From the NCBI GenBank assembly GCA_023389255.1, contig JAEWER010000028.1, forward strand, positions 20,282 through 84,281: 64,000 bases of DNA, in the 5' to 3' direction. Each line of letters opens with the position of its first letter. Positions within the stretch are counted from its first letter, which is position 1. Positions 2,964 to 49,972 of this stretch are shown piece after piece. Made by a program: the position numbers and the translations under genes. The notes under the pieces are model-generated. The model searched no databases. It saw nothing but the letters and a program-made list of their open reading frames with translations, and had not been told where the DNA came from. The stretch is from Bacillota bacterium (GTDB lineage Bacteria > Bacillota > Clostridia > Saccharofermentanales > DTU023).

Positions 2964-2974
2964 TCAGAGGTACT

Positions 2975-5923: not shown

Positions 5924-5927
5924 CAAC

Positions 5928-5956
5928 TTGCAAGACAAGCCAACAAGTGCTAATAT
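5928..5956 (+). promoter_or_regulatory. Putative sigma-A promoter of rpsT (TTGCAA-N17-TAATAT)
   Basis: -35 TTGCAA at 5928-5933, 17-nt spacer, -10 TAATAT at 5951-5956. Lies about 40 nt upstream of the rpsT start. Confidence 0.5.
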
Positions 5957-5997
5957 TTAGAGCGCTAATGTAAAAAATCCGCAGGAGGTGAAGAAGG

Positions 5998-6249: not shown

Positions 6250-6276
6250 GTAGATTTTGTATTGCAATAGCAATTT

Positions 6277-6304
6277 AAAGAACCCGCTATTCGCGGGTTC
6301 TTTT
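6277..6304. terminator. Bidirectional rho-independent terminator between convergent rpsT and araD
   Basis: AAAGAACCCGC-tattc-GCGGGTTCTTT perfect stem, flanked by an A-run and a T-run. Confidence 0.8.
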
Positions 6305-6330
6305 AATTTAATTAATTTGCGTTTAATTCT

Positions 6331-7044: not shown

Positions 7045-7116
7045 TTCCTCTAGCTAAAAGTAACTGTTGTATAATTCAGTCAAATTAAGTATAACGGCTT
7101 ACTTGCAAGGAGTTGT

Positions 7117-7797: not shown

Positions 7798-7825
7798 TCG
7801 ACGAACTATTTGGTATTTTAGGAAG

Positions 7826-7855
7826 AAAAAAGCTTGTCTTAGTGACAAGCTTTTT
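7826..7855. terminator. Rho-independent terminator between convergent xpt and ribU
   Basis: AAAAAGCTTGTC-ttagt-GACAAGCTTTTT perfect stem with flanking A-run and T-run. Confidence 0.7.
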
Positions 7856-35033: not shown

Positions 35034-36530
35034 ATGAGTGAATATGTTGTCGAATTGCGAAACATCACTAAGCGTTTCCCCGGTGTGTTAGCGCTCAAGG
35101 ATATGCACATTGCCATTAAGCCAGGTACTATACATGGTTTAATCGGTGAAAATGGTGCGGGTAAATCTACCTTGATTAAAACACTGACCGGCGTGCACAA
35201 GCCAGATACAGGCGAAATAATCGTCAATGGTGAAGTACACAAATTTAAGGACCCCAATGACTCAGCCAAAGCAGGTATTGCCTGTGTGTATCAGGAGCTG
35301 AACATTGAAAAACTACTCAGTATTACCGATAACATTTTTATTAACAAGTGGTTGCGAAAAGGTCCATTGCTTGATTACAAGACCATGCATGAAAAAGCAG
35401 CTGAGGTGATGAAAGATCTAGGTCAGACTGTTGATACGCATAAGGCTGCTGGTACTTTCGGCATGGGTGTCCAACAGATGATCGAAATTGCCAAGGCAAC
35501 CATGATCGATGCCAAGTTGATTATTATGGACGAGCCTACCTCATCTTTAGGAGAAAAAGAGGTAGAACAGTTGATGGCAACTTGTCGTTATCTCAAGAGT
35601 AAGGGTATTGCTATTCTCTTTGTTTCTCACAAACTGGAAGAGTTGTTTGAATTGTGCGATTTGGTCACAGTTATGCGTGATGGTGAACATATCATCACAG
35701 AAGACATCGAAAATATGGATCACGACAAGCTGATCACAGCCATGGTTGGTCGTTCTTTAGAAAATCAATTCCCTAAAGAGTTTGGCACCAGAGGCGAAGT
35801 TGCCTTAGAAGCCAAAGATTTAACTATTGGTGGTGTATTAGACAAGGTCAGCTTTAAAGCCTATAAGGGCGAAATCCTAGGTTTTGCTGGTTTGGTTGGC
35901 GCAGGTCGTACAGAAACGATGCGTGCTATCTTCGGTGCCGATCATCTAGATAGTGGTGAAGTTTATATTCACGGCGAAAAGGTTAGCATTAAAAACCCGG
36001 GTCATGCGGTCAAAAAAGGTATCGCTTTCTTAACGGAAGACCGCAAAGGACAGGGATTGGTTTTACAACAAAGTATTAGGACCAATCTGATCTTAGCTAA
36101 TCTCAAAGGTTTTTCTAACGGACCATTCTTAAACGAGAAGCGGATTGAACAATCTGGTGAGGATAATGTTGCCTCCCTACGTATTAAAACCCCATCGCTT
36201 GACGAGATTGTAGGACAACTTTCTGGTGGCAACCAACAAAAAGTTGTTATCGGTAAGTGGGTTAATACGGATGCACGTATCTTCATTTTTGATGAACCTA
36301 CACGTGGTATTGATGTAGGCGCCAAAATCGAAGTGTACAACGTTATGAACAGCCTGGTTAAAGCTGGACATTGCGTAATTATGATCTCCTCTGAGATGCC
36401 TGAAATCTTAGGTATGAGCGATCGTGTTGTGGTTATGCGTAAAGGTCGCGTCATGGCTACGATCAATCGTGGAGATAAAGAATTTAACCAAGAAGATATT
36501 ATGAGCGCTGCCTGGGGAGGTAAAAAATAA
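35034..36530 (+). CDS. Sugar/inositol ABC transporter ATP-binding protein (CUT2, duplicated ATPase)
   Basis: Two ABC cassettes: Walker A GENGAGKST, and LSGGNQQKV in the second half. RbsA/MglA-like, 498 aa. Confidence 0.9.
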   Translation: MSEYVVELRNITKRFPGVLALKDMHIAIKPGTIHGLIGENGAGKSTLIKTLTGVHKPDTGEIIVNGEVHKFKDPNDSAKAGIACVYQELNIEKLLSITDNIFINKWLRKGPLLDYKTMHEKAAEVMKDLGQTVDTHKAAGTFGMGVQQMIEIAKATMIDAKLIIMDEPTSSLGEKEVEQLMATCRYLKSKGIAILFVSHKLEELFELCDLVTVMRDGEHIITEDIENMDHDKLITAMVGRSLENQFPKEFGTRGEVALEAKDLTIGGVLDKVSFKAYKGEILGFAGLVGAGRTETMRAIFGADHLDSGEVYIHGEKVSIKNPGHAVKKGIAFLTEDRKGQGLVLQQSIRTNLILANLKGFSNGPFLNEKRIEQSGEDNVASLRIKTPSLDEIVGQLSGGNQQKVVIGKWVNTDARIFIFDEPTRGIDVGAKIEVYNVMNSLVKAGHCVIMISSEMPEILGMSDRVVVMRKGRVMATINRGDKEFNQEDIMSAAWGGKK

Positions 36531-37549
36531 TGTTAAAGCAAAATAAATTCTCCAAAATTTTATCGGAGTTGGGAACTCTGCTCGCCCTGATAATTCTCTG
36601 TGTGATTTTAACTATCGCTACTCCTAACTTTCTCAAAGTTGATAACTTGATGAACATCTTAAAGCAGACATCAGTTAATGCTTTGATTTCAGCTGGTATG
36701 TTAGTTTGCTTGATTACTGGTGGTATCGACTTATCAGTAGGTGCTAACGCCATTACTTGTACATGTTTAATGGGTTTGATGTTAACTAAAGGTATTGATA
36801 ATGCAGTAATCATGATTATCGCTGTTCTGGTTTTAGGTACTTTAATTGGTTTCATCAACGGTACCTTGTTAACTCGCTTACATTTACCCCACCCCTTCGT
36901 CTCGACACTGGGTATGAAAAATGTTCTCTCTGGTGTAGCTCTGTTACTGGTCAACTCTAAGATGGTATCAGGCTTCGGTAAAGATATTATGTGGTTGGGT
37001 TCACATTCAGCAGGTAGCTTCACCTATGGTGCTGGCAAACAATTCCCTGGTGTGCCTGTATCGTTCATCTTAGTAATCATTCTCTTCGCCATTATGGGTG
37101 TGTTCTTGAGCAAAACTGCTCTGGGTAGATCAATTTACTGTGTAGGTGGTAACGCTGAAGCAGCTAGACTTTCTGGTATTAATTCCGCTAACGTCTTAAC
37201 TTTCTGCTATGCCTTATCTGGTTTCTTCTGTGCTGTTGCTGGTATCGTTATCGTTGGTCGTACGGGTATCTGTAATGGTGCAAACGCAACTCAGCCCTAC
37301 GAAACTGATGCTATCGCAGCTTGTATCATCGGTGGTGCATCATTCCTAGGTGGTAAAGGAACTATGAGAGGTACCATGATTGGTGCTCTGATTATCTCCG
37401 TTATCAGAAATGGTTTGACCTTGCTTTCCGCCTCATCTGCCATTCAGTTTGTAGTTTTAGGTTTGGTTATCATCTTAGCGGTTCTAATCGATATTACACG
37501 TCAACAATTCGCTGTTAAAGCTCGTCGTCTAGCGATGGCTAGTAAGTAA
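36530..37549 (+). CDS. Sugar/inositol ABC transporter permease (RbsC/BPD_transp_2 family)
   Basis: 10-TM RbsC-like protein (..TGGIDLSVGA.., ..GGNAEAARLSGI..). ATGA-type overlap with the ATPase gene. Confidence 0.9.
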   Translation: MLKQNKFSKILSELGTLLALIILCVILTIATPNFLKVDNLMNILKQTSVNALISAGMLVCLITGGIDLSVGANAITCTCLMGLMLTKGIDNAVIMIIAVLVLGTLIGFINGTLLTRLHLPHPFVSTLGMKNVLSGVALLLVNSKMVSGFGKDIMWLGSHSAGSFTYGAGKQFPGVPVSFILVIILFAIMGVFLSKTALGRSIYCVGGNAEAARLSGINSANVLTFCYALSGFFCAVAGIVIVGRTGICNGANATQPYETDAIAACIIGGASFLGGKGTMRGTMIGALIISVIRNGLTLLSASSAIQFVVLGLVIILAVLIDITRQQFAVKARRLAMASK

Positions 37550-37576
37550 AACAGCTAGTAAGTAGAGGAAATAAAT

Positions 37577-39442
37577 ATGGATTTTCCGAGAATTCGTTTA
37601 ACAATGGCACAAGCCTTAGTCAAATTCATGGATAACCAATATGTTGAATTTGATGGCAAGGAACAAAAGTTTGTGCACGGTGTCTTCGGCATCTTTGGCC
37701 ATGGTTGCGTAACTGGTGTCGGCGAGGCGCTGGAATACATGGATCACGATCTGAAGTTTTATCAAGGTAAAAATGAGCAATCTATGGGTTTAGCTGCCAT
37801 GGCGTACGCTAAACAATTAGATCGTAGAGCCATCATTCCCTGCGTTTCTTCGATTGGTCCTGGTGCCACCAACATGGTAACTGCAGCGGCGTGTGCTACT
37901 GCTAATCGCATCCCGTTGTTGGTATTACCGGGAGACACCTTTGCAACACGTCAACCTGATCCAGTATTACAACAAGCTGAAATTTTCAGCAGTATCGGCA
38001 CCACAGTTAATGATTCATTTCGTGCAGTGTGTCGATATTTTGATCGCATCAATCGTCCTGAGCAATTGATGAGTGCACTGTTGCAAGCTTTCCGTGTATT
38101 GACCGATCCAGCGGAAACAGGAGCTGTCTGCATTGCGATGCCACAAGATGTTGAGGCAGAAGCTTATGATTATCCAGCTTATTTCTTTGAAAAGCGTGTT
38201 TGGCATATGGATCGTCGTCCTTTGGCGGTACCACAAGGTCAACGCTTAGAAGAGCTGATCAAGCAGAGCAAACGTCCACTGATGATTGTTGGTGGTGGTG
38301 TTCGCTACTCAGATGCTGGTGCAGAAGTTGTGAAACTAGCTGAACATTGCCAGATTCCTTTTGCCGAAACACAAGCTGGCAAAGGATTGATTCGTTGGGA
38401 TCATCCGCTAAATATGGGCGGTATCGGTGTAACTGGTACTGAATGCGCAAATTTAGTAGCCCAAAAAGCAGATTTGGTTATTGGCATTGGTACACGTTTC
38501 TCCGATTTCACAACTGCTTCAAAATGGTTATTTAAGAATCCAGAATGCAAATTCATTTCTATCAATGTATGTGGATTTGATTTAGTCAAACTAAATGCTC
38601 ATGGTATTCAAGCTGATGCCAAAGAAGCCTTGCAAGGAATGTATGAATTCTTAAATGACTATCAATCAGCTTATGAAGAAGATGAACTGAAGAACTTAAA
38701 AGAAAATTGGATCAAAGAAGCTAATCGTTTATTTGCTCAGCCTGGTCAAAAATTTAATCAGGTCGCAGCTGTGGGCATTATCAATCAGTTCATGGCAGAT
38801 GAAGATATCGTTTGCTGTGCAGCTGGTAGCTTGCCGGGTGATTTACAGCGTCTGTGGCGTCCAGGCAACAGTCATTCCTACCATGTTGAATATGGCTATT
38901 CCAACATGGGATATGATTTGAATGCTGGTCTGGGTATTAAGCTGGCAGCACCAAATTCTGAAGTGTTTACCATGGTGGGAGATGGTGGCTATTTAATGTT
39001 GAATGCAGAAGTCCATACCATGGTGCAGGAGCGAGCAAAGGTCAATATCATGTTGTTTGACAACATGGGGTGGGGCTGTATTGAAAGCCTGCAAAACAGT
39101 CATGGCGGTAATAGCTACGGTACTTGCTTCCAAGTTAGAAGAGAGGGAGAAGCAGTGCCTAAGGGAGATTTGATTCCTGTTGATTTCGCTATGAATGCTA
39201 GATCGTTAGGGTGTGCAGCCTATACCTGCCATAACGCTGAAGAACTCAAGCAAGCGTTGGTGGACAGCAAGAAAATAACAGATAAACCTGTGCTATTTGA
39301 TATTAAGGTTGACCATGCTTCTATGAGTAAAGGCTATGAATCATGGTGGCGTGTAGGTGTAGCAGAAGTTTCAGAGTCAGAAGAGGTGCGTAAGGCATAC
39401 GCTGACAATGTTGCTCATATTAAACAAACTCGGGATTATTAA
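37577..39442 (+). CDS. iolD: 3D-(3,5/4)-trihydroxycyclohexane-1,2-dione acylhydrolase (ThDP enzyme)
   Basis: IRLTMAQALVKFMDNQYVEFDGKE.KFV.GVFGIFGHG N-terminus and overall length are typical of IolD. GDGGYLM ThDP motif. Confidence 0.9.
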   Translation: MDFPRIRLTMAQALVKFMDNQYVEFDGKEQKFVHGVFGIFGHGCVTGVGEALEYMDHDLKFYQGKNEQSMGLAAMAYAKQLDRRAIIPCVSSIGPGATNMVTAAACATANRIPLLVLPGDTFATRQPDPVLQQAEIFSSIGTTVNDSFRAVCRYFDRINRPEQLMSALLQAFRVLTDPAETGAVCIAMPQDVEAEAYDYPAYFFEKRVWHMDRRPLAVPQGQRLEELIKQSKRPLMIVGGGVRYSDAGAEVVKLAEHCQIPFAETQAGKGLIRWDHPLNMGGIGVTGTECANLVAQKADLVIGIGTRFSDFTTASKWLFKNPECKFISINVCGFDLVKLNAHGIQADAKEALQGMYEFLNDYQSAYEEDELKNLKENWIKEANRLFAQPGQKFNQVAAVGIINQFMADEDIVCCAAGSLPGDLQRLWRPGNSHSYHVEYGYSNMGYDLNAGLGIKLAAPNSEVFTMVGDGGYLMLNAEVHTMVQERAKVNIMLFDNMGWGCIESLQNSHGGNSYGTCFQVRREGEAVPKGDLIPVDFAMNARSLGCAAYTCHNAEELKQALVDSKKITDKPVLFDIKVDHASMSKGYESWWRVGVAEVSESEEVRKAYADNVAHIKQTRDY

Positions 39443-39458
39443 TCCAAAGGAGGATAAA

Positions 39459-40466
39459 GTGATTAAATTAGGTGTTATCGGTACAGGCCGCATCGGTAAA
39501 TTACATGTTGAAAACATCAATAAATTTGTGCCGGATGCAAAGGTCATTGCTGTAGCTGATGTGATGATCGATTACAGCCGTGAATGGGCAAAAGAGCAAG
39601 GCATTGAACATGTCTACCAGGATTACAATGAACTCTTGCAAAATCCTGAAGTAGACGCCGTGGTCGTAGCTACATCCACAGATACCCATGCAACTGTGGC
39701 TATTGCTGCCTGCAAAGCTGGTAAAGACATTTTCTGTGAGAAACCAGTTGATACTTCAGTAGCTAAAATTAAAGAGGTTTTGGCTGCAGTTAAAGAAGCT
39801 GGTGTCAAATTCCAAGTTGGCTTTAACCGTAGATTTGACCACAATTTCCGTCGAGTACGTGAATTTGTAGAAAATGGCACAGTGGGTGAACCGCATCTAT
39901 TGCGTGTTACCAGTCGTGATCCAGCCCCCCCTTCAGTTGAATATATCGCTTCTTCAGGTGGTTTATTCCTAGATATGATGATTCACGACTTTGATATGGT
40001 GCGTTATCTGAGTGGAAGTGAAGTCAAAAAAGTTACTGCGTTTGGTGCAAATCTGATTGATCCAGCAATTGGCAAAGCAGGCGATATCGATACAGCTACT
40101 GTGACTTTGGAACTAGAAAATGGTGCACTAGCTGTTATTGATAACAGTCGTCAAGCGGTTTATGGCTATGACCAAAGAGTGGAAGTATTTGGCTCCAAAG
40201 GTGTAGCGCAAGCGTTTAATGACAAGCCTTCTAATGTGGAGGTTTCAACGGCTGATGCAGTAACCACCGATAAAATCCGCTATTTCTTCTTAGATCGCTA
40301 TACGGGTGCCTTTGTTGATCAATTTGTCAGCTTTATCAAGGCGCTGAAAGGCGAAGCTGAAGTTCCGGTTGATGCTCTAGATGGTTTGCGTGCAGTAGAG
40401 GTTGCTTTAGCAGCAACTGAGTCACTGCGTTCAGGTAAAACCATCACCATGGAATACGATCAATAA
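39459..40466 (+). CDS. iolG: myo-Inositol 2-dehydrogenase (Gfo/Idh/MocA)
   Basis: IKLGVIGTGRIGKLH Rossmann fold, EKP motif (FCEKPV) and GFNRRFD. GTG start at 39459 with AAAGGAGG RBS; the track ORF start overlaps the end of iolD. Confidence 0.85.
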   Translation: MIKLGVIGTGRIGKLHVENINKFVPDAKVIAVADVMIDYSREWAKEQGIEHVYQDYNELLQNPEVDAVVVATSTDTHATVAIAACKAGKDIFCEKPVDTSVAKIKEVLAAVKEAGVKFQVGFNRRFDHNFRRVREFVENGTVGEPHLLRVTSRDPAPPSVEYIASSGGLFLDMMIHDFDMVRYLSGSEVKKVTAFGANLIDPAIGKAGDIDTATVTLELENGALAVIDNSRQAVYGYDQRVEVFGSKGVAQAFNDKPSNVEVSTADAVTTDKIRYFFLDRYTGAFVDQFVSFIKALKGEAEVPVDALDGLRAVEVALAATESLRSGKTITMEYDQ

Positions 40467-40471
40467 AAATA

Positions 40472-40507
40472 AGCGAATTGTAACAGTTATAGCTGTTGCA
40501 ATTCGCT
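40472..40507 (+). terminator. 15-bp stem-loop after iolG (terminator-like or RNA-stability hairpin, no 3' U-tract)
   Basis: AGCGAATTGTAACAG-ttatag-CTGTTGCAATTCGCT with a single G-U wobble. Followed by AAAATAATC rather than a T-run. Confidence 0.6.
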
Positions 40508-40519
40508 AAAATAATCTAT

Positions 40520-40533
40520 AGCAAACGTTTGAA
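40520..40533. promoter_or_regulatory. Operator-like palindrome AGCAAACGTTTGAA upstream of iolE
   Basis: Contains the perfect 10-bp palindrome CAAACGTTTG. Same motif family as the two sites in the locus leader. Lies 19 nt upstream of the iolE ATG. Confidence 0.5.
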
Positions 40534-40551
40534 ACGTTAAGTGAGGTAGCT

Positions 40552-41448
40552 ATGTTAGCAAAAGACAAAGTACATTTAGGAATTGCTCCGATCGGTTGGA
40601 CAAATGATGATATGCCCGATCTCGGCAAAGAAAACACATTTGAACAATGTGTAAGTGAAATGGCGTTGGCAGGATTTACAGGTTCAGAGGTTGGCAATAA
40701 ATATCCCAAAGATCCAGCTGTCTTAAAGCCTATGCTTGATATTCGTGGTATGAGAATAGCCAACCAATGGTTTTCATCGTTGCTGACATCAGAGCCTTAT
40801 GAAGTGACTATTGAGAACTTCAAAAAACAACTTGAATTTCTTAAAGCTATGGGCGCTAAGGTAATCGGTGCTTCAGAGCAAGGAAATTCTATTCAAGGTA
40901 AACAAATTCCTATTTTAGGTGAGCAAAAACCTGTCTTTACTGATGAGCAATGGCAACTCATTGCTAAAGGTATGAACGAAATGGGCAAAATTGCTCGTGA
41001 TATGGGCATGACTCTAACGTACCATCACCATATGGGCACAGGCATTCAAACCATGGCAGAGGTAGACAAATTTTTGGAGCTGACTGATCCGGAATTAGTT
41101 TTCCTGCTGTATGATACAGGGCATTTTGCTTTCTCAGGTGAAGATCATGTGGTTGCCGTTGAACGCTACATGCCGCGAATTAAGCACGTGCACTTGAAAG
41201 ACATTCGTAGTTCAGTCATCGAGCAAGTGAGAAAAGAAAATAAGAGCTTCTTAGAGGCTGTGCGTATGGGTGCATTTACAGTACCTGGTGATGGCGATTT
41301 GGACTTCAAGCCTGTGTTTGAGGTGCTAGAAAAGAATAATTACAGTGGTTGGATGATTGTAGAAGCAGAGCAAGATCCAGCCAAAGCGAATCCTTTTGAA
41401 TACGCAGTAAAAGCGCGCAAGTTCATCCGCGAAAATACTGGTTTATAA
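40552..41448 (+). CDS. iolE: Inosose (2-keto-myo-inositol) dehydratase
   Basis: LGIAPIGWTNDDMPDLG...YHHHMGTGIQT...FTVPGDGDLDFKPVF...VEAEQDPAKANP is nearly collinear with Bacillus IolE. Confidence 0.9.
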   Translation: MLAKDKVHLGIAPIGWTNDDMPDLGKENTFEQCVSEMALAGFTGSEVGNKYPKDPAVLKPMLDIRGMRIANQWFSSLLTSEPYEVTIENFKKQLEFLKAMGAKVIGASEQGNSIQGKQIPILGEQKPVFTDEQWQLIAKGMNEMGKIARDMGMTLTYHHHMGTGIQTMAEVDKFLELTDPELVFLLYDTGHFAFSGEDHVVAVERYMPRIKHVHLKDIRSSVIEQVRKENKSFLEAVRMGAFTVPGDGDLDFKPVFEVLEKNNYSGWMIVEAEQDPAKANPFEYAVKARKFIRENTGL

Positions 41449-41459
41449 CACAGGTCATT

Positions 41460-42527
41460 ATGGTCACGATTAAAGACATTGCCGAAAAAGCTGGTGTTTC
41501 TTACTCAACAGTTTCTCGTTCGTTGAACGATTATGCAGGAACTAATGATGAAACTAAGAAACGCATTAAAGAGTTAGCTAAGCAAATGGGCTACGAGCCT
41601 AACGATATCGCACGTTCTTTGGTGACCAGAAGATCAAATACTGTTGGTTTTGTTTTACCCGATATTGCGAATCCTTTCTTTGCTGATATTTTGTCTGCCA
41701 TCAATGAGATAGCAGAAATGCATGGATTTAACACTCTGGTTTGTAGTACGGGATGGAATGCTGATAAAGAATTACAAGCCCTAAAAATGCTCTCGTCTAA
41801 GCGGGTGGATGGCATAGTTTTATACCCCGCCCGCTTGATCGAGGACGATCGCTTAGAAGTGATCAAACCTCCGGTCATAGTGATGGGCAGACCGTATGAT
41901 CCAGAAAAGAATAGGATCAAATGTGTGGAAGTAGATAATGATAAAGGCGCACGTTTAGCTATAGATCATTTGGTGGCCAGTGGCTACAGCAGAATAGCTT
42001 ATTTAGGTGGACCGAATCATTCTCTTTCCAACATTATTCGCAAACAAGCTTTTGCAGATGAGCTAATCAAAAAGCAGTTCGCTTGTAACGAAGAGTGGAT
42101 TAGCGACGGAGAATACACCATTGATAGTGGTTGTGAGCGTGCTAGAACGTTGCTTAAGCAGACTTCTAAAAACGCAAAACAACTACCAGATGCGCTACTC
42201 TGTGCCAACGATATGATCGCTTTGGGAGCGATGCAAGCAGTTGAAGAACTAGGGTTTAAGTTAGGCAAAGATATCGCAGTGATGGGTTTTGATGATGTTC
42301 AATATGCTTCTTTACCTCAGATACAGCTCTCTACTATCAGCATCCCACGTTTTGAATTAGGACGTATCTCTATGCAGATGCTGATAGAGGCGATAGAACA
42401 GCAACCAATAGATAAAGCAGGACGTACCAACAATTCTAAGTACAATCTTGCGTTACAACAGGAAGTCAAAGGTTATAGAGTTTTGCTCTATCCAGAATTA
42501 ATCGTACGTAAAACAACAGTAAAGTAG
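41460..42527 (+). CDS. LacI-family transcriptional regulator
   Basis: N-terminal HTH (VTIKDIAEKAGVSYSTVSRSLN) and a periplasmic-binding-protein-like sugar-binding core. Confidence 0.9.
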   Translation: MVTIKDIAEKAGVSYSTVSRSLNDYAGTNDETKKRIKELAKQMGYEPNDIARSLVTRRSNTVGFVLPDIANPFFADILSAINEIAEMHGFNTLVCSTGWNADKELQALKMLSSKRVDGIVLYPARLIEDDRLEVIKPPVIVMGRPYDPEKNRIKCVEVDNDKGARLAIDHLVASGYSRIAYLGGPNHSLSNIIRKQAFADELIKKQFACNEEWISDGEYTIDSGCERARTLLKQTSKNAKQLPDALLCANDMIALGAMQAVEELGFKLGKDIAVMGFDDVQYASLPQIQLSTISIPRFELGRISMQMLIEAIEQQPIDKAGRTNNSKYNLALQQEVKGYRVLLYPELIVRKTTVK

Positions 42528-42536
42528 GTATTTAGA

Positions 42537-43799
42537 GTGCAATACACAGTAGCCATAGGAGAAAGAAAGCAGTCTGTCGAAATTCCTGAAGAATTAGTTT
42601 TGGCAGTTCTGGAGCAAAATGAGGTTCAGGTTGAACTCACTGGAGCTGATGCTGTAAGCCAAGCTATCAACAACCCTATAGGTAGTCCTAAACTGGAAGA
42701 AATCATCAAACCGGGTGAGAAGATTGCCATCATTACTTCAGATTTGACTAGACCGATACCTTCATACATCGTGTTGCCACCATTACTTGAGCGATTACGC
42801 AAAATTGGTTGTGCTAATGAAGACATAGTTATTGTGTTTGCTTTAGGATCACACCGTAAGCAGACTGAAGCAGAGATGCGTAAATTGGTAGGGGACCAAG
42901 TTTACGATAATTATCGCTGTGAGGATGGAGATATCGATGATGTGGTGCACATGGGCACTACAAGTAGTGGCACACCAGTTGATGTTTGTCGCACGGTTGC
43001 CGAAGCTGATCGCAGAATTTGTTTGGGCAATATTGAATACCACTACTTTGCTGGTTACAGTGGAGGTGCAAAGGCGATTATGCCTGGTGTTTCCACCAGA
43101 GCTGCGATTCAAGCTAATCACAGCATGATGGTTAGAGATACTGCAACTACTGGTAATGTTGATCACAACCCTGTACGTGATGATTTAGAAGAAGCGATCA
43201 ACTATTGTCCTATAGATTTTATTGTCAATGTGGTTCTCGATGAACACAAAAAAATTATTCATGCCGTGGCTGGTCACTTTATCACTGCTCATCGTAGCGG
43301 TTGTAAGTTCCTGGATAGCCTTTATCTCAAACCTATTGCTAAACGTGCAGATATTGTTATCTGTTCACAAGGTGGCAAACCGAAAGATTTGAATTTGTAT
43401 CAAACACAAAAGGCACTGGACAATGCTAAAAATGCGGTGCGTGACGGAGGCATCATAATTTTGGTGGGTTCTTGTCAGGAAGGATTAGGCGAAGGAGTTT
43501 TTGAACGTTGGATGTTGGAACATGATGAATCGTCCAGCATGATCAGTGATATTCAAAAACACTTTGAGCTAGGAGGGCATAAAGCCGCCGCGATTGCGAT
43601 GGTATTACAACGTGCTCGTATTTTCTTAGTTTCAGATATGGAGCATGAATTTGTCAGACGAATTTTTATGACTCCGTTCAACACAGTCCAAGAAGCCTAT
43701 GATCAGGCGAAAAAAGAGCTAGGAGAGCAAAGTGAAGTCATTATCATGCCGTATGGAGGTTCGACATTACCGCGCTGCCTAGCTGACAAAGATAAATAA
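42537..43799 (+). CDS. LarA-family nickel-pincer-nucleotide-dependent 2-hydroxyacid racemase/epimerase homolog
   Basis: DUF2088/LarA fold, 420 aa. Retains ALGSHR (His108-equivalent), EYHYFAGYSGGAK (His174 and cofactor-tethering Lys184 equivalents) and QANH (His200-equivalent). Confidence 0.85.
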   Translation: MQYTVAIGERKQSVEIPEELVLAVLEQNEVQVELTGADAVSQAINNPIGSPKLEEIIKPGEKIAIITSDLTRPIPSYIVLPPLLERLRKIGCANEDIVIVFALGSHRKQTEAEMRKLVGDQVYDNYRCEDGDIDDVVHMGTTSSGTPVDVCRTVAEADRRICLGNIEYHYFAGYSGGAKAIMPGVSTRAAIQANHSMMVRDTATTGNVDHNPVRDDLEEAINYCPIDFIVNVVLDEHKKIIHAVAGHFITAHRSGCKFLDSLYLKPIAKRADIVICSQGGKPKDLNLYQTQKALDNAKNAVRDGGIIILVGSCQEGLGEGVFERWMLEHDESSSMISDIQKHFELGGHKAAAIAMVLQRARIFLVSDMEHEFVRRIFMTPFNTVQEAYDQAKKELGEQSEVIIMPYGGSTLPRCLADKDK

Positions 43800-43833
43800 T
43801 GAGCTCAGCTCAAGTGATATGTAGGAGGTTCAC

Positions 43834-44868
43834 ATGTCAAAGGTAAAAGTAGGTGTAGCAGGTTATGGTGTCATTGGCCAAAGATTGGCTGATGGCGTTG
43901 CTCGTCAACAAGATATGGAATTAGTTGGTATTGCAGATATTGCTCCCACTTTATCCATTCGCGCTTTACATGAAAAAGGCATGCCTTATGATCTATATTT
44001 GGTCGATGGCGCTAAAAAAGAGGATTTTGAGAAATACGGCATCCCCACTAAAGGAAGTTTCGAAGATTTGGTCAACCAAGTTGATATCATGCTAGATTCT
44101 TCACCTGGTGGTGTTGGTATCAAAAATAAAGAGTTGTATGAACGCCTAGGCAAGAAAGCCATCTTCCAAGGTGGCGAATGCAATGAGGTAGCAGATGTCT
44201 TCTTCCACGGCTATGCTAACTTTGAGAAAGGTTTAGATCAAAAATATCTGAAGCTGACTTCTTGTAATACCACTGGTCTGATTCGTTCAGTGGATTGCTT
44301 AGATCGTGCTTATGGTATTAGCAATGTAGCTATCACCATTGTTCGACGTGTAGCCGATCCTGGCGATTACCACCGTGGATTAACCAATGCTTTGCGCATT
44401 GACAAGGCTCCCAGCCATCAAGCAGTAGACTTGATGACTATCATGCCTCATGTAGAAGCAACAGGTATCTTAATCCATACACCTGTCACCCATGGTCATA
44501 TCATTACAGTCGTAGCTAAAGGTAAAGAAAAAATTACCAAAGAGATGGCTTTAGAGGCTTTTGCTAAACACGATCGTATTCGTTTGGTTTCAATCGATGA
44601 AGGCTTCTTAGGTAACGCATCTCTATTCCGCTATGCTCGTGATTTAGGTAATCCTCGTGGCGATATGTATGAAATCGCTATCTGGAAAGATTCAATTGTT
44701 GAAACAGGCGATGGTATCATGTACGCCATCAATATTCCTCAAGAAGCAGTTACTATTCCTGAAACTATGGACGCAATTCGCGCAGCCACTGGTATGCAAA
44801 ATTCCCGTGAAGAAGGAACTGCTAAAACCAATGAATATTTAGGTTTAGGAAAATGGAAAAACAAATAA
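43834..44868 (+). CDS. Type II (archaeal-type) glyceraldehyde-3-phosphate dehydrogenase family protein
   Basis: Collinear with archaeal GAPDH: VGVAGYGVIGQRLAD, active-site SCNTTGL, IVRRVADP. 344 aa. Strong AGGAGG RBS. Confidence 0.85.
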   Translation: MSKVKVGVAGYGVIGQRLADGVARQQDMELVGIADIAPTLSIRALHEKGMPYDLYLVDGAKKEDFEKYGIPTKGSFEDLVNQVDIMLDSSPGGVGIKNKELYERLGKKAIFQGGECNEVADVFFHGYANFEKGLDQKYLKLTSCNTTGLIRSVDCLDRAYGISNVAITIVRRVADPGDYHRGLTNALRIDKAPSHQAVDLMTIMPHVEATGILIHTPVTHGHIITVVAKGKEKITKEMALEAFAKHDRIRLVSIDEGFLGNASLFRYARDLGNPRGDMYEIAIWKDSIVETGDGIMYAINIPQEAVTIPETMDAIRAATGMQNSREEGTAKTNEYLGLGKWKNK

Positions 44869-46088
44869 AGTCTTATAAAGAATTTTCTTATGCTGGGCGC
44901 AGAGTTCTTCTGCGTCTAGATATTAATTCTCCTTTAGATCCTAAGACCAAGCAAATTACCGATACTACTCGTATCGATAAAAGTTTGTCCACAGTTAATT
45001 ACCTGCTGGAACAAGGAGCTAAAGTAGCTATCATTGCGCACCAAGGCGATACTTTGGACTATCAGAATTTATATCCATTAGCCGAGCACGCCAAGATTCT
45101 AAGCGAAAAGACTGGTCGCAAAGTAGACTATATCGATGATGTATGTGGACCAGCTGCCATTGCTAAGATCAAGGAACTCTCAGATGGTGAGGCGATTATT
45201 TTAGGCAATTTGCGCTACTTAGCCGAAGAAATTTCTACTTTTGAAACAGTGGTTAAGTTGACTCCGCAAGAGATGACTAAAACTTGGCTAATTCGTAGCT
45301 TAAGCGAGCACTTTGATTACTATGTCAATGATGCCTTTTCCGCTGCGCATCGTGCTTGTCCCTCGATGGTTGCTTTCCAAGAAGTGTTACCATCGGCTGC
45401 TGGTGAATTATTCTTTGCTGAATATTCAGCGCTCAACAACGTGCTCAAACAGCCACAACATCCATCGGTATTTGTGCTCGGGGGCGCCAAAATTTCTGAT
45501 GCCTTTGGCATGATGGAACAGGTTCTAGTTAACGGTACTGCCGATAAAATTTTAACAACTGGCGTTACTGGCGTAGTGTTTCTGTTAGCTCAAGGTAAGA
45601 GCATTGGTAGTAAGTATGAGCAGTGGTTGCGAGATCGTAAGTTGTTGGACTTTGTTGAACCGGCAAAACGTTATTTGGAAGAATATGCCGGTAAAATCGA
45701 GGCTCCAGTCGACTTAGCGTACGCACAAAATGATGAAAGAAAAGAGTTAGATATTGCCCAACTACCCATGGACGATGCAATGTTCCTGGATATAGGCAGT
45801 GCTACAATAGAAAAGTATCAAGAGATTATTCAATCGGCGGCAACATTGTTTGTCAATGGCCCTGCTGGTGTCTACGAAGATCCGTTATTTGTTAAAGGTA
45901 CAGAAGCTCTCTGGCAAGCTATCGCAAAAGCGCCAGGACACTCTGTTATCGGTGGCGGAGATACCGTACAAGCTGCAGGCAAGTTTATTGATCTGACTGA
46001 CATAGGTTATGTCTGTACAGCGGGCGGTGCCATGGTCAGATTTATGACAGGCAAAAAACTTCCTCTGATTGAAGCGATGGAGAAATAA
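44853..46088 (+). CDS. Archaeal-type phosphoglycerate kinase family protein with an altered substrate motif
   Basis: RLDINSPLDPKTKQITDTTRI...GAKVAIIAHQGD...GNLRY..EE and the C-terminal GGGDT pattern. 411 aa. Overlaps the GAPDH-like gene by 16 nt. Confidence 0.8.
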   Translation: MEKQIKSYKEFSYAGRRVLLRLDINSPLDPKTKQITDTTRIDKSLSTVNYLLEQGAKVAIIAHQGDTLDYQNLYPLAEHAKILSEKTGRKVDYIDDVCGPAAIAKIKELSDGEAIILGNLRYLAEEISTFETVVKLTPQEMTKTWLIRSLSEHFDYYVNDAFSAAHRACPSMVAFQEVLPSAAGELFFAEYSALNNVLKQPQHPSVFVLGGAKISDAFGMMEQVLVNGTADKILTTGVTGVVFLLAQGKSIGSKYEQWLRDRKLLDFVEPAKRYLEEYAGKIEAPVDLAYAQNDERKELDIAQLPMDDAMFLDIGSATIEKYQEIIQSAATLFVNGPAGVYEDPLFVKGTEALWQAIAKAPGHSVIGGGDTVQAAGKFIDLTDIGYVCTAGGAMVRFMTGKKLPLIEAMEK

Positions 46089-46939
46089 TGATGGATAAAT
46101 CACAGAAATTTTCATTAGAAAAATTTGCTGCTGAGATTCGTCTGCACACCACTAAAGAAGTTGTAAAACGTGGCTTTGGCCACTTAGGCGGATCTCTTTC
46201 AGTAGTTGATGCTTTGGCTGTTTTATACGGCAAGCAACTAAAATGCGATCCCAAGAATCCTAAAGATCCTGATCGTGATTATTTAGTGATGAGCAAAGGT
46301 CATGCGGGTCCCGCAGTTTATGCAACACTGGCTCTCAAAGGCTTTTTCCCCATTGAAGAGCTGGAAACTTTGAACCAACCAGGCACAAATTTGCCCAGCC
46401 ATTGTGACCGCAATAAGACAATCGGTGTAGATGCTACCACTGGTTCCTTAGGACAAGGTTCATCTCAAGCCTGTGGTATCGCTTTAGGCAACAAATTAGC
46501 TGGCAGACAAAATTATACCTATCTGTTCACCGGTGATGGTGAGAGTAACGAAGGACAAATTTGGGAAGCCGCCTTGTTTGCCAGTCAACAAAAACTGGAT
46601 CATCTGATTTGGTTTGTTGATTACAACCGTAAGCAACTTGATGGTGCTACCGATGAAGTCATGAGTATGGGTTCCATTGTTGATAAGTTTAAAGCTTTTG
46701 GATTTCATGCTGTGGAAGTAGATGGACACGATGTTTGCGCAATTGATGATGCCATCGAGCAAGCTAAACAAGTTAAGGATCAACCTTCTTGCATCGTCTT
46801 GAACACCATTAAGGGTAAGGGTTTAGACGAACTAGAGAAGATGGCATTGAATCACCATATCGCCATCGATGAAGCTTTCGGCAAATCATCAGTGGCATTC
46901 TTTGAGGAAGCTTTAGCCACAATGAAGGAGGAAGCCTAA
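46088..46939 (+). CDS. Transketolase, N-terminal (PP-domain) subunit
   Basis: SKGHAGPAVYA and ThDP motif GDGESNEGQIWEA...DYNRKQLDG. 283 aa, split-type. Confidence 0.9.
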   Translation: MMDKSQKFSLEKFAAEIRLHTTKEVVKRGFGHLGGSLSVVDALAVLYGKQLKCDPKNPKDPDRDYLVMSKGHAGPAVYATLALKGFFPIEELETLNQPGTNLPSHCDRNKTIGVDATTGSLGQGSSQACGIALGNKLAGRQNYTYLFTGDGESNEGQIWEAALFASQQKLDHLIWFVDYNRKQLDGATDEVMSMGSIVDKFKAFGFHAVEVDGHDVCAIDDAIEQAKQVKDQPSCIVLNTIKGKGLDELEKMALNHHIAIDEAFGKSSVAFFEEALATMKEEA

Positions 46940-47913
46940 TGTTTAAAGTTATCTACGATGGTACTGCCGAGCAGAAGGCACACAAGAATGTATACGCTGA
47001 TACAATTGAGCAATTAGCCAGTGAAGATAAAGATGTAATTTATCTGGATGCTGATTTGATGAATTCAGCTGGTACTTATAAATTCTGGAAAGAGCATCCC
47101 GACCAAGCCATTAACTGTGGTATTGCGGAAGCAAATATGATGGGCGTAGCTGCTGGCTTATCTTTAGTTGGCAGAAAACCATATGTACATACTTTTGGAC
47201 CTTTTGCGTCACGCAGATGTTATGATCAAACTTTTTTAAGTGTTGGTTATTCCAAAAACAGTGTGCGTATTTTTGGTTCTGATCCTGGTGTGGCTGCAGC
47301 TTTCAATGGTGGTACGCATATGCCTTTTGAAGATATGGCGCTGATGCGTGCAATTCCAGAGTCACATGTTTTTGATTTGGCAGATGGCGTGCAATTTGCT
47401 TGGACTTTACGTGCAGTCAAAGACTTATCTGGCGTAGTCTACATGCGTAGTACCCGCAAGAATTACAAAAAGATCTATGCAGAGGATTCAACTTTCGAGA
47501 TTGGTAAAGGCAATGTCCTCCGTGAAGGTACCGATTTAACAATCATTGCTTGTGGCTTGATGGTTGGTGAAGCGATGGAAGCAGCTGAGATGCTAGAAAA
47601 GGAAGGTATTTCAGCACGTGTTGTTGATATGTTTACAGTAAAACCCTTAGATGCAGAATTAGTTTGCGAATCTGCCAAGAAAACGGGTTGTATTGTTACA
47701 GCTGAAAATCACAATATTATCGGCGGTCTAGGCGAAGCTGTTGCTTCTGCTTTGGCTGGTGGTTGCAAAGCATGTCGTGGTGTAGCCTTTAAGAAGCATG
47801 GTGTTACCGATCGTTTTGGTGAAGTTGGACCTGTTGACTACCTGCAAGAAGTTTATGGCTTAACGGCAAAAGCGTTAGTAGAAACATGTAAACAAGCATT
47901 AGCTGAAAAGTAG
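46939..47913 (+). CDS. Transketolase, C-terminal (Pyr + C-terminal domain) subunit
   Basis: DADLMNS...GIAEANMMGVAAGL...GGTHMPFEDMALMRAIP. 324 aa. ATG overlaps the upstream stop (TAATG). Confidence 0.9.
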   Translation: MFKVIYDGTAEQKAHKNVYADTIEQLASEDKDVIYLDADLMNSAGTYKFWKEHPDQAINCGIAEANMMGVAAGLSLVGRKPYVHTFGPFASRRCYDQTFLSVGYSKNSVRIFGSDPGVAAAFNGGTHMPFEDMALMRAIPESHVFDLADGVQFAWTLRAVKDLSGVVYMRSTRKNYKKIYAEDSTFEIGKGNVLREGTDLTIIACGLMVGEAMEAAEMLEKEGISARVVDMFTVKPLDAELVCESAKKTGCIVTAENHNIIGGLGEAVASALAGGCKACRGVAFKKHGVTDRFGEVGPVDYLQEVYGLTAKALVETCKQALAEK

Positions 47914-47914
47914 T

Positions 47915-47943
47915 GCCGAGCGAGCTTCGCTCGGCTTTTTTTG
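47915..47943 (+). terminator. Strong rho-independent terminator after the transketolase genes
   Basis: GCCGAGCG-agctt-CGCTCGGC followed by T8. Confidence 0.85.
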
Positions 47944-47951
47944 AGGGAATT

Positions 47952-48752
47952 ATGTATATCGAAAAAGAGCTACATCCTGGCTATAACGAATATTTAAGTT
48001 TGGATGTTGAAAACGGATATGGTAGCTGGATGGATGTCGGTTTGCTCATCTTGCAAGCTGGTGACAGCTACACTTTTGCTGAAACAGAAAAAGAAGTTTC
48101 TTGGATTTTAATGCAAGGCAAGGCTGTTGCTGAATTCGATGGACAAAATGTAGAGATGGATCGTCCCAATCCCTTTGCATACAATCCATGGTGTTTATTG
48201 ATGTCTAAGAATCATAGCTGCACTGTAACTGCAATATCAGACTGTGAATTCTACGTACAAAAATCCTATAACGACAAGGAATATGCAACGCATCTTTATA
48301 CTGATCAGGAAACTGATACTTGGCATCGTGGAGATAAAGGTGAATTAGGAGACTGCATTCGTCGTGATGTCAGAACTTGTTATGACTATGAGACTAGACC
48401 CGACTCCAACATGGTCTTGGGTGAAGTGGTAAATTTACCAGGCAAATGGTCAAGTTATCCGCCCCACAATCATCCACAACCAGAAGTATATTTCTATTTC
48501 TTTGAAAAGGAGCAAGGTTTTGGTGCAGGGTGGGCAGATAATCGTCCATATGAATTGCATCATCATGGGTGTTTAGTGATTACTGATGAAGTTACACACT
48601 CACAAGTTATGGCGCCAGGTTATGCTTGTTGTTATACCTGGGGTATTCGTCATCTACCAGGTAATCCTTGGGAAAAAACAAGAATAGATGATCCTAAACA
48701 CGAATGGCTTTTAGCAGAAAATCCTCAATACTGGGATCAACCTAAACAATAG
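47952..48752 (+). CDS. iolB: 5-Deoxy-glucuronate isomerase
   Basis: Cupin with the GKWSSYPPHNH signature and a ..DDPKHEWLL C-terminus, as in Bacillus IolB. I moved the start to the ATG at 47952 (GAGGGA RBS) because the track ORF start lies inside the terminator. Confidence 0.85.
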   Translation: MYIEKELHPGYNEYLSLDVENGYGSWMDVGLLILQAGDSYTFAETEKEVSWILMQGKAVAEFDGQNVEMDRPNPFAYNPWCLLMSKNHSCTVTAISDCEFYVQKSYNDKEYATHLYTDQETDTWHRGDKGELGDCIRRDVRTCYDYETRPDSNMVLGEVVNLPGKWSSYPPHNHPQPEVYFYFFEKEQGFGAGWADNRPYELHHHGCLVITDEVTHSQVMAPGYACCYTWGIRHLPGNPWEKTRIDDPKHEWLLAENPQYWDQPKQ

Positions 48753-48784
48753 AATCATGTGCAATTGCACTGAAAGGTAAATTT

Positions 48785-49972
48785 ATGGCAGAAAAAATAA
48801 ATTACGCTGAGATGTCATTAGCAAAACATCAAGAGTGGAAGGGAAAGATTGAAGTTATCGCTACTTGTCCTGTTTCCAGCAAACACGAATTAGCTTTAGC
48901 ATACACGCCAGGCGTTGCTGAACCTTGTTTGCAGATTCAGAAGGATGTTGATAAATCCTACGAGTTAACACGCAGACACAACTTAGCCTTGGTAGTTACA
49001 GATGGTAGTGCTGTTTTAGGTCTTGGAGATATTGGGCCTGAGGCAGGCATGCCTGTTATGGAAGGTAAATGTGCTCTGTTTAAAGCATTTGGTGATGTAG
49101 ATGCTTTCCCCTTATGCGTTAAATCACAAGACGTAGATACAATAGTAGAAACCATCTATCAAATTTCGGGCAGTTTTGCTGGCGTGAATTTAGAAGATAT
49201 TGCAGCTCCGCGTTGTTTTGAAATTGAAGAGCGCCTAAAAGCTAAATGCGATATCCCCATTTTCCACGATGATCAACATGGTACGGCTGTTGTAACTTTG
49301 GCTGGCTTAATCAATGCCTTGAAGATCGTAGGCAAAAAGATGGATGAGATCAAAGTCGTTATGAATGGCGCAGGTGCAGCTTCGATTGCTATTAGCAAAT
49401 TGTTGTTATCAGCCGGTGTAAAAGATCTTATTTTGTGCGATCGCAAAGGGGTAATTTATAAAGGTCGTACCGAGGGCATGAATAAGTATAAAGAGCAGAT
49501 GGCAGAGATTAGTAATCCACGTCAAATCAAAGGCTCTTTAGCTGATGCTCTAGTGGGTGCTGATGTGTTTGTTGGCGTATCAGCTGCTGGCGCAGTTTCT
49601 CAAGATATGGTTCGTTCAATGAATAAAGATGCTATCGTTTTCGCTTGTGCCAACCCCATTCCAGAAATCTATCCAGACGAAGCTAAAGAAGCTGGTGCCG
49701 CTGTTACAGCAACAGGCAGATCAGACTTCGCTAACCAAATCAATAATGTTTTAGCATTCCCAGGTATTTTCCGCGGAGCATTTGATGTGCGTGCTAAGGA
49801 CATTAACCAAGAAATGAATGTGGCAGCAGCTCATGCTATCGCCTCACTAGTTGGGGATGATGAATTAAATCCTGAGCACATCATGCCAGATGCTTTTGAT
49901 CCAAGAGTTAAAGAAGTAGTGGCTAAAGCGGTAGCAGAGGCAGCTATTAAGACAGGCGTGAATCGTATCTAA
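48785..49972 (+). CDS. NAD(P)-dependent malic enzyme (short type)
   Basis: LAYTPGVAEPC, VVTDGSAVLGLGDIG, FAGVNLEDI..P.CF, FHDDQHGTA and GAGAA dinucleotide motifs. Confidence 0.9.
   Translation: MAEKINYAEMSLAKHQEWKGKIEVIATCPVSSKHELALAYTPGVAEPCLQIQKDVDKSYELTRRHNLALVVTDGSAVLGLGDIGPEAGMPVMEGKCALFKAFGDVDAFPLCVKSQDVDTIVETIYQISGSFAGVNLEDIAAPRCFEIEERLKAKCDIPIFHDDQHGTAVVTLAGLINALKIVGKKMDEIKVVMNGAGAASIAISKLLLSAGVKDLILCDRKGVIYKGRTEGMNKYKEQMAEISNPRQIKGSLADALVGADVFVGVSAAGAVSQDMVRSMNKDAIVFACANPIPEIYPDEAKEAGAAVTATGRSDFANQINNVLAFPGIFRGAFDVRAKDINQEMNVAAAHAIASLVGDDELNPEHIMPDAFDPRVKEVVAKAVAEAAIKTGVNRI

Follow-up and report, generated by a model that had tools for sequence, protein, structure and literature searches.

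A split transketolase in a myo-inositol gene cluster, predicted to act on 5-dehydro-2-deoxy-D-gluconate, and a candidate route through D-malate

Myo-inositol and phytate-derived inositol are abundant in gut and soil, and the textbook route for their breakdown spends ATP on 5-dehydro-2-deoxy-D-gluconate (DKG) and ends in acetyl coenzyme A (acetyl-CoA) and dihydroxyacetone phosphate (DHAP). Here, we analyze a split transketolase (TK) encoded among inositol catabolism (iol) genes in a 64,000-nucleotide stretch of a Bacillota genome (hereafter, the window; assembly GCA_023389255.1, contig JAEWER010000028.1, positions 20,282 to 84,281). On the basis of its conserved gene context and of precedent, the enzyme is most likely a catabolic split TK working on DKG, in an apparently undescribed lower branch of inositol catabolism. 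Among the systems described so far, SqwGH is the 6-deoxy-6-sulfofructose TK of the sulfo-TK pathway of Clostridium sp. MSTE9 and Faecalicatena (PMC9594981, PMC11659671), and an engineered Escherichia coli TktA (R358I/H461S/R520Q) shows improved activity on 5-keto-D-gluconate, giving tartaric semialdehyde (PMC12016104). The L-carnitine catabolism of Acinetobacter leads from malic semialdehyde through D-malate to pyruvate (PMC11353897), and Mar2 of Thermoanaerobacterium thermosaccharolyticum, the LarAH6 prototype, is a characterized, specific malate racemase (PMC7583248). In the searchable literature (subscription-only papers lay outside the search), we came across no account of inositol catabolism that includes a TK step, and the literature containing inositol, transketolase, and iolD together was unrelated to such a step.

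An earlier note on this DNA, made from the sequence alone, had placed a split TK at 46088-47913. ORF coordinates and Pfam matches confirm that this span consists of exactly two intact open reading frames (ORFs):

46088-46939, + strand: TK-N, thiamine diphosphate (ThDP)-binding (PP-domain) subunit of split transketolase; 283 amino acids (aa); Pfam Transketolase_N (PF00456), 170.6 bits
46939-47913, + strand: TK-C, subunit with Pyr and C-terminal domains and divergent substrate-channel residues; 324 aa; Pfam Transket_pyr and Transketolase_C (PF02779, 107.6 bits; PF02780, 122.2 bits)

Stop and start codons overlap (TAATG) both between the preceding phosphoglycerate kinase (PGK) homolog gene and TK-N and between TK-N and TK-C, an AGGAGG ribosome-binding site (RBS) lies upstream of TK-C, and the two subunit genes are translationally coupled. 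The closest solved relatives are the subunits of the Carboxydothermus hydrogenoformans split TK (6YAK against TK-N, 218.6 bits; 6YAJ against TK-C, 254.5 bits), and the top NCBIfam match of both subunits is the general transketolase model (240 and 255 bits, compared with a full-length cut-off of 488). The catalytic equipment is complete. In the alignment to 6YAK, the GDG...N motif for ThDP and the divalent metal is found in TK-N as GDGESNEG (149-156) and DYN (178-180), while TK-C carries the cofactor-activating Glu and Phe pair (GIAE64AN and TF86GPF89) as well as the TK C-terminal domain. All catalytic histidines (E. coli H26, H66, H100, H261, and H473) align with histidines of the split enzyme (TK-N H32, H72, H105, and H256/257; TK-C H127).

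The residues that surround the sugar substrate are a mixture of replaced and kept positions. We mapped TK-C to the E. coli numbering via HMMER alignments to 6YAJ and human TK (4KXU); the residue roles listed here are established knowledge:

K16 (E. coli R358), phosphate ligand: replaced
S43 (E. coli S385), phosphate ligand: kept
E64 (E. coli E411), cofactor activation: kept
D115 (E. coli H461), phosphate ligand: replaced
F122 (E. coli E468): replaced
N123 (E. coli D469, yeast D477), binds the aldose C2-OH: replaced
H127 (E. coli H473), catalytic: kept
M128 (Q in the canonical enzyme): replaced
R173 (E. coli R520), phosphate ligand: kept

The claim of the earlier note that the phosphate-binding residues are lost holds for two of the four members of the set R358/S385/H461/R520, which reads K16/S43/D115/R173 in TK-C; it fails for S385 and R520, both of which are kept. 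The stereo-determining Asp (D469) is also lost, N123 following F122 in place of Glu, and this arrangement is kept across the clade of TKs that share the variant. All of the strings that the note had quoted (GDGESNEGQ, DYNRKQLDG, AHKNVYAD, and GSDPGVAAAFNGGTHM) are present in the sequence; AHKNVYAD stands in TK-C where canonical split TKs read (A)TR..YG, and GSDPGVAAAFNGGTHM where they read THAG..GEDGxxHQ. The N-terminal subunit, described in the note as canonical, is so in its ThDP/metal motif and not around the catalytic histidines, where it carries clade-specific changes relative to canonical split TKs (GHPGG to GHLGG, LQGHPD to LPSHCD, NGLQIDG to NRKQLDG, and WHG to NHH). In TK-C, H84 and R92 occupy positions that are Ser/Thr and Gly in the canonical enzyme (STFAMFAAGR to HTFGPFASRR). 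The head-group-binding motif of this enzyme family has been given as RSFHR (PMC11659671).

A search of 5.8 billion proteins recovered the pattern [ST]D[PA]G....[FY]NG[GA]THM in 118 of the 120 closest TK-C homologs (62 to 100% identity), and [HY]K and DADLMNS were also present in nearly all of these; given the recurrence of the motif, the altered TK-C residues are not a matter of chance. A genome scan at one genome per species yielded 80 TK loci (designated by L numbers), i.e., 47 of the D...NGGTHM type (variant) and 33 canonical ones, and [ST]H.G..[VL]GEDG..HQ was found in all 33 canonical split TKs. In a neighbor-joining (NJ) tree, the variant TKs form a clade cleanly split from the canonical one.

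The window TK stands in a cluster that encodes the upper part of inositol catabolism together with a GAPDH homolog, a PGK homolog, a malate racemase, and a malic enzyme:

35034-36530 and 36530-37549, + strand: ATPase and permease of a sugar-type ABC transporter; best NCBIfam matches of the xylose/ribose type, all below cut-offs
37577-39442, + strand: IolD, 3D-(3,5/4)-trihydroxycyclohexane-1,2-dione acylhydrolase; TIGR04377, 884 bits (cut-off, 715)
39408-40466, + strand: IolG, inositol 2-dehydrogenase; TIGR04380, 458 bits (cut-off, 355)
40552-41448, + strand: IolE, myo-inosose-2 dehydratase; TIGR04379, 421.5 bits (cut-off, 290)
41460-42527, + strand: LacI-family regulator; NCBIfam LacI-family matches
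42537-43799, + strand: LarAH6-family malate racemase dependent on the nickel-pincer (NPN) cofactor; NF052593, 577.3 bits (equivalog cut-off, 500); Pfam Lar_N and LarA_C
43834-44868, + strand: archaeal-type (type II) phosphorylating GAPDH homolog (GAPDH-II); NF003251, 401 bits
44853-46088, + strand: PGK homolog, nearest to archaeal PGK; Pfam PGK, 359 bits; best PDB match, Pyrococcus horikoshii 2CUN
47915-47941, + strand: GC-rich hairpin, then a T7 run; terminator scan, visible in the sequence
47952-48752, + strand: IolB-family 5-deoxy-glucuronate isomerase, divergent; Pfam KduI/IolB, 143 bits; TIGR04378, 85 bits (cut-off, 205)
48785-49972, + strand: NAD(P)-dependent malic enzyme (L-malate to pyruvate and CO2); Pfam malic and Malic_M; NF009501, 369 bits, N-terminal half of a longer model

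The upper pathway is thus represented by IolD, IolG, and IolE above their equivalog cut-offs and by IolB at the family level only. The genes of the textbook lower half, i.e., IolC (the PfkB-type DKG kinase), IolJ (the class II aldolase for DKG phosphate), and IolA (an aldehyde dehydrogenase [ALDH]), were not seen within the 64-kb window, where ORF translations of at least 120 to 200 aa were read on both strands and Pfam and NCBIfam scans covered the cluster genes at 35034-49972.

These observations, together with the neighborhoods described below, make it likely that the split TK is specialized for DKG and that its product, D-malic semialdehyde, is converted to D-malate with a gain of ATP and then to pyruvate. 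We lean, by a little, toward the fuller claim that a DKG-specific TK, a GAPDH-type enzyme, a PGK-type enzyme, a malate racemase, and a malic enzyme form the five parts of a lower branch of anaerobic myo-inositol catabolism that yields ATP and has not been described before. All substrates assigned here to the TK and to the GAPDH and PGK homologs, like the acceptor of the TK, are those that we infer. IolG, IolE, IolD, and IolB would convert myo-inositol to DKG. Read from its keto end, DKG would present the CH2OH-CO- group of a ketose and the D-threo (3S,4R-type) arrangement that TK donors require, so that the proposed cleavage is stereochemically consistent. The TK would remove C6-C5 as a ThDP-bound glycolaldehyde unit and, by analogy with SqwGH, would pass it to an aldose phosphate, most likely glyceraldehyde-3-phosphate (G3P), giving xylulose-5-phosphate. 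The fragment released would be OHC-CHOH-CH2-COO-, i.e., (R)-3-hydroxy-4-oxobutanoate or D-malic semialdehyde, which can be seen as an analog of D-G3P with CH2-COO- in place of CH2-OPO3. Since the two aldehydes resemble each other, GAPDH-type and PGK-type enzymes would be natural catalysts for the next steps. The type II GAPDH homolog is predicted to act with phosphate as a phosphorylating D-malic semialdehyde dehydrogenase, giving D-malyl phosphate, and the PGK homolog as a D-malyl-phosphate:ADP phosphotransferase, giving D-malate and ATP. The LarAH6 racemase would then convert D-malate to L-malate, and the malic enzyme would convert L-malate to pyruvate. Structure rules predict the D enantiomer from the cleavage of DKG, which would explain the presence of a racemase ahead of an L-malate-specific malic enzyme. 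In replacing the ATP-consuming IolC/IolJ/IolA branch, the TK branch would save one ATP and gain another, and such an ATP-yielding branch would suit the fermentative anaerobes that carry the cluster.

The association of this TK type with the other proposed components recurs in distant genomes, as in the following loci (given with their gene order or gene content):

L003, Treponema metagenome-assembled genome (MAG): IolG-IolB-IolD-IolE-PGK-GAPDH-TKN-TKC
L004, Saccharofermentanales MAG: IolB, IolE, LarA, PGK, TKN, TKC, GAPDH, IolG, IolD
L006, Clostridia: IolD, LacI, LarA, GAPDH, PGK, TKN, TKC
L007, Breznakiellaceae isolate: IolG, IolD, IolB, IolE, PGK, GAPDH, TKN, TKC, malic enzyme, LarA
L088, Anaerolineaceae: substrate-binding protein (SBP)-ABC-IolG-IolD-IolE-GAPDH-PGK-TKN-TKC-LacI-LarA; TK-C with K at the R358 position and SDSGINAAYNGGTHM
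L089: IolB-GAPDH-PGK-LarA
L090: iol/GAPDH-II/PGK/LarA cluster with a third-type split TK (6023-7848) and ALDH, CoA-transferase, and HMGL-like neighbors (2144-5991)

The genome scan showed the linkage in 11 further genome loci besides L003, L004, L006, and L007. Within the unbiased 80-locus set, a PGK homolog was present at 11 of the 47 variant TK loci and at none of the 33 canonical ones (Fisher P = 0.002), and any iol gene at 15 of 47 and 0 of 33, respectively (P = 0.0002); no iol neighbors were found at the 33 canonical-motif loci examined. Neighbor-ORF clusters 16 and 30 were left out of the comparison as spurious antisense ORFs in high-GC loci. The reverse search, starting from the GAPDH homolog, recovered a family whose members in Lachnospiraceae, Anaerolineaceae, and Treponemataceae share at least 78% identity, and all three of the genomic contexts examined (L088, L089, and L090) are iol clusters. 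The linkage of TK, GAPDH-II, PGK, LarA, and iol genes spans Bacillota (Clostridia), Spirochaetota, and Chloroflexota. The malic enzyme gene also adjoins the TK genes in L007, L010, L014, L015, L017, L022, L028, L029, L032, L037, L039, and L051, a LacI gene occupies the equivalent place in L004, L006, L088, and L090, and homologs of the window ABC transporter flank the module in L003, L088, and L090. The comparative evidence (i.e., the iol cluster, the linkage in three phyla, and the precedents of SqwGH and TktA) therefore speaks for the suggestion of the earlier note that the altered channel would fit a nonphosphorylated, carboxylate-bearing donor such as DKG.

Two of these loci show further features. 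The TK-C of L090 contains the segment GIEAGMRFGSLGNTHF and lacks an Arg at the position of R358. Just upstream of the iol-type TK/GAPDH/PGK/malic-enzyme/LarA block of L015 lie adjacent ORFs of 306 and 202 aa (L015:5617-7142); by eye, the former resembles the alpha subunit of a class I fumarate hydratase or tartrate dehydratase, and the latter is presumed to be the beta subunit. This ORF pair would be another tie of the module to malate.

The GAPDH and PGK homologs depart from their characterized relatives at conserved positions, and NCBIfam (June 2026) names the cluster proteins only generically. The R65 position of PGK (R in Thermotoga, K in Pyrococcus) is D in the window protein (HQGDT), and D or S (HQGDT or HQGSD) occupies it in 16 of the 16 cluster-linked PGK orthologs, in which R38, H62, R122, and R170 are kept. 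The basic patch of a bona fide PGK (H62/R65/R122/R170) has thus lost R65 and kept the other three residues. The GAPDH homolog keeps the catalytic SCNTTG and RR. Compared with four archaeal structures, all 14 cluster-linked GAPDH orthologs are altered at invariant positions (SHH to SHQ, VPTTLMH to HTPVTH, and AVHQES to NIPQE), and, of the positions invariant in the four structures, 22 differ in 13 or more of the 14 orthologs (e.g., H196Q and H302P). The changes in both homologs would fit a substrate whose substituent is smaller and carries a single charge.

Several observations on the TK weigh against its specialization for DKG. The kept S385 and R520 and the still cationic K16 mean that binding of sugar phosphates may persist (and, for their role as acceptors, presumably has to), and the Asp replacing H461 would repel a carboxylate instead of binding it; we can only conjecture that the clade-specific R92 or H84 is a candidate replacement anion site. 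In an exhaustive HMMER search against representatives at 50% identity, the D..NGGTHM type proved common to dozens of such clusters, and many variant loci lie in other sugar-cluster contexts or in none. Variant-clade members without iol neighbors mean that the motif by itself is no proof of DKG specificity. Monophyly of the iol-linked TKs was expected and not found, since a quick NJ tree places these enzymes on several separate branches within the variant clade. We also sought a residue unique to the iol-linked TKs and found none, since R358 is changed to K in two subgroups only and F/Y122 also occurs in orphan TKs. The R-to-K change is missing from the iol-linked TKs of L013, L014, and L023.

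An ordinary pentose-phosphate TK, i.e., a lineage-specific housekeeping variant that is merely near an iol cluster and processes, for example, pentose and triose phosphates from inositol catabolism, would account for part of these observations. Its catalytic residues, ThDP/metal motif, S385, and R520 are all kept, its best NCBIfam match is the general model, and variant-motif TKs occur amid housekeeping genes in several Oscillospiraceae genomes. The TKs of L020, L021, and L024 lie among GlyRS, MnmE, MnmG, and MetRS genes and those of L030, L031, and L037 adjoin ProRS, with no sugar genes nearby, and they could serve those Oscillospiraceae as general-purpose TKs. These variant TKs (at ~10001-10960 in L020, L021, and L024) read SDPGVTAAYNGGTHM and keep R at the R358 position. 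The earlier note had regarded a wide spread of its motif variant among housekeeping split TKs as a sign against its proposal; such a spread is not seen among TKs with the canonical motif in Ruminococcus and other Clostridia (33/33 canonical), although some variant TKs do stand among tRNA-synthetase genes. The variant motif as a mark of a housekeeping TK was rejected on synteny grounds for the window enzyme and not for all members of the clade. Against an ordinary TK, different phyla have conserved the changes at R358, H461, and D469 together with those in the N subunit, and the changed positions coincide with those whose mutation shifts the E. coli TK off phosphorylated substrates. Synteny with GAPDH-II, PGK, LarA, and iol genes is tight in three phyla, and no TK is required by the canonical iol route, whose products are DHAP and acetyl-CoA. 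The location of L018 and L039 on one contig and the two TK pairs of L016 further argue for specialized roles. We therefore consider an ordinary pentose-phosphate TK unlikely.

In Maledivibacter halophilus (L016), the two variant TK pairs lie within 20 kb, and the paralogous variant TKs of L016 and L018/L039 are found near class II aldolase-like and Fe-dependent alcohol dehydrogenase (Fe-ADH) genes. The presence of several variant paralogs per genome suggests that the clade diversified for different substrates.

A second alternative retains the cleavage of DKG by the TK and assigns classical functions to the GAPDH-II and PGK homologs, i.e., the gluconeogenic supply of the G3P acceptor, or glycolysis, with the oxidation of malic semialdehyde left to an unlinked dehydrogenase. 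Archaeal type II GAPDH and PGK are classically gluconeogenic, and the window homologs keep the catalytic Cys/His and PGK R38, H62, R122, and R170; with their catalytic and most of their anion-binding residues in place, they could still accept G3P and 1,3-bisphosphoglycerate as substrates, a point that also counts against their proposed role in D-malate formation. Similarly, the iol-linked TK loci L034, L039, L051, and L052 have no GAPDH and PGK homologs, and L090 contains an ALDH. On the other side, bacteria already own a GAPDH and a PGK, the R65/K ligand is lost in 16 of 16 PGK orthologs and the second His of SHH in 14 of 14 GAPDH orthologs, and the cluster-type copies were found only in iol or TK contexts. 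Moreover, the window cluster, despite encoding a malate racemase and a malic enzyme, holds no other aldehyde-oxidizing candidate. Classical roles for the two homologs thus appear improbable, about as much so as an ordinary TK.

A third possibility, that the TK uses another nonphosphorylated ketose or aldehyde (for example, another keto acid derived from an inositol isomer or a uronate by the divergent KduI/IolB isomerase) or releases free glycolaldehyde, draws on the low score of the IolB-like protein (85 bits, compared with an equivalog cut-off of 205) and on the many sugar clusters around the wider variant clade (with Zn-ADH, RpiB-like, and ABC transporter genes), and is very unlikely given that IolG, IolE, and IolD are bona fide equivalogs, that the one known fate of 5-deoxy-glucuronate is isomerization to DKG, and that the D-malate logic of racemase and malic enzyme fits DKG exactly.

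Two features of the locus itself also count against the proposed DKG branch. The hairpin at 47915-47941 has a 9-bp stem (GCCGAGCGA-GCT-TCGCTCGGC) and lies directly after the TK-C stop codon and before the RBS and ATG of the IolB-like gene. This hairpin, which may act as an intrinsic terminator or attenuator, splits TK-C from the IolB-like and malic enzyme genes, so that the cluster may comprise more than one transcription unit. Additionally, iolC, iolJ, iolA, or a second, canonical tkt could be located elsewhere in the genome.

The remaining features of the cluster and its surroundings are as follows. The ABC transporter at 35034-37549, with no substrate-binding-protein gene adjoining, is presumed to be the inositol uptake system, and the gene upstream of it (33045-34652) has the look, by eye, of a TrkH-type K+ transporter. 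The IolG ORF as listed overlaps the end of IolD by 35 nucleotides (39408-39442). Its match to the IolG profile starts only at residue 19, so that translation probably initiates downstream of the listed ATG. The start of the IolB-like gene is the ATG at 47952 (as in the called gene of L001, with an RBS), and the position of the hairpin indicates that the GTG start listed for this ORF at 47913 is an artifact. The larB, larC, and larE genes for the LarA cofactor were not seen in the window, where ORF translations were read by eye with no profile scan; since the racemase at 42537-43799 needs the nickel-pincer cofactor, these genes must lie elsewhere in the genome. Ribosomal-protein genes are located downstream of the malic enzyme gene. 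Positive GC skew prevails throughout the window, nearly all genes of which are on the + strand, and a lone gene at 6331-7044, one of the very few on the minus strand, resembles, by eye, an AraD-type L-ribulose-5-phosphate 4-epimerase/class II aldolase.

If the proposed route is correct, it would provide the first physiological rationale for the largest group of LarA homologs and for bacterial type II GAPDH genes, and it would explain the source of D-malate for widespread malate racemases. A D-malyl-phosphate:ADP kinase derived from PGK would represent a new substrate-level phosphorylation, and the predicted ATP and carbon balance would change for Clostridia, termite-gut and other spirochetes, and Anaerolineae. 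The blanket labels "transketolase," "type II GAPDH," and "PGK" would be corrected for thousands of database proteins. Additionally, a natural enzyme set consisting of a carboxylate-accepting TK, a malic-semialdehyde dehydrogenase, and a kinase would be of interest for biocatalysis toward C4 hydroxy acids.

Each of the known systems shares a part of the predicted route. The Bacillus subtilis-type myo-inositol pathway has the same upper half (IolG, IolE, IolD, and IolB), which is predicted to yield DKG in the window as well; its lower half consists of IolC, IolJ, and IolA (malonate-semialdehyde dehydrogenase), whereas the window encodes the TK, the GAPDH and PGK homologs, the racemase, and the malic enzyme instead. 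The carnitine branch of Acinetobacter resembles the proposal in its intermediates (3-hydroxy-4-oxobutanoate and D-malate) and in its end product, pyruvate. It differs in using a nonphosphorylating ALDH and a decarboxylating D-malate dehydrogenase, whereas the route proposed here would employ a phosphorylating GAPDH-type enzyme and a PGK-type kinase, with a gain of ATP, followed by a racemase and an L-malic enzyme. With a score above the LarAH6 equivalog cut-off, the window LarA is in line with the LarAH6/Mar2 family; the published context of LarAH6 (group 6; Desguin et al. 2020, supplement) includes malic enzyme and unrelated genes, with no TK, PGK, or iol genes and no source of D-malate given.

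Among TKs, the C. hydrogenoformans enzyme (6YAJ/6YAK) shares the two-subunit architecture, the cofactor motifs, and the catalytic His and Glu residues with the window TK, and differs from it in the segments TR, THAGLTVGEDGASHQ, GHPGG, LQGHPD, and NGLQIDG, which read HK, SDPGVAAAFNGGTHM, GHLGG, LPSHCD, and NRKQLDG in the window. The engineered TktA appears, by analogy of its reaction, to be the closest chemical precedent: a 5-keto-hexonate (DKG with a 2-OH) is cleaved to give a C2 unit plus a semialdehyde acid of four carbons, as proposed for the window TK, and phosphate-binding positions are changed in both. However, it is an artificial, full-length single chain with R520 mutated and with Ile and Ser at the other two positions, whereas the split window TK keeps R520 and has Lys and Asp. 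SqwGH differs from the window TK in its anionic group, which is a sulfonate for SqwGH and, as proposed, a carboxylate for the window enzyme, and in the RAFDR motif of SqwH (R356 kept, S383 to A, H466 to D, and R525 kept), for which window TK-C has K, S, D, and R; i.e., SqwH keeps the Arg at R358 and changes S385 to Ala, whereas window TK-C has K16 and keeps the Ser. None of the sulfoquinovose genes (YihQ, sulfoquinovose [SQ] isomerase, SqwI, and SqwF) is present in the window, where the neighbors are iol, GAPDH-II, PGK, LarA, and malic enzyme genes. Both enzymes consist of split subunits with a catabolic role, proposed in the case of the window TK, on a nonphosphorylated anionic ketohexose, and both have Asp at H461 with R520 kept (PMC11659671). 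SqwGH transfers the C2 unit to G3P, giving xylulose-5-phosphate (PMC9594981, PMC11659671), and the same transfer is proposed for the window TK, of which SqwGH would, by this analogy, be the closest natural precedent.

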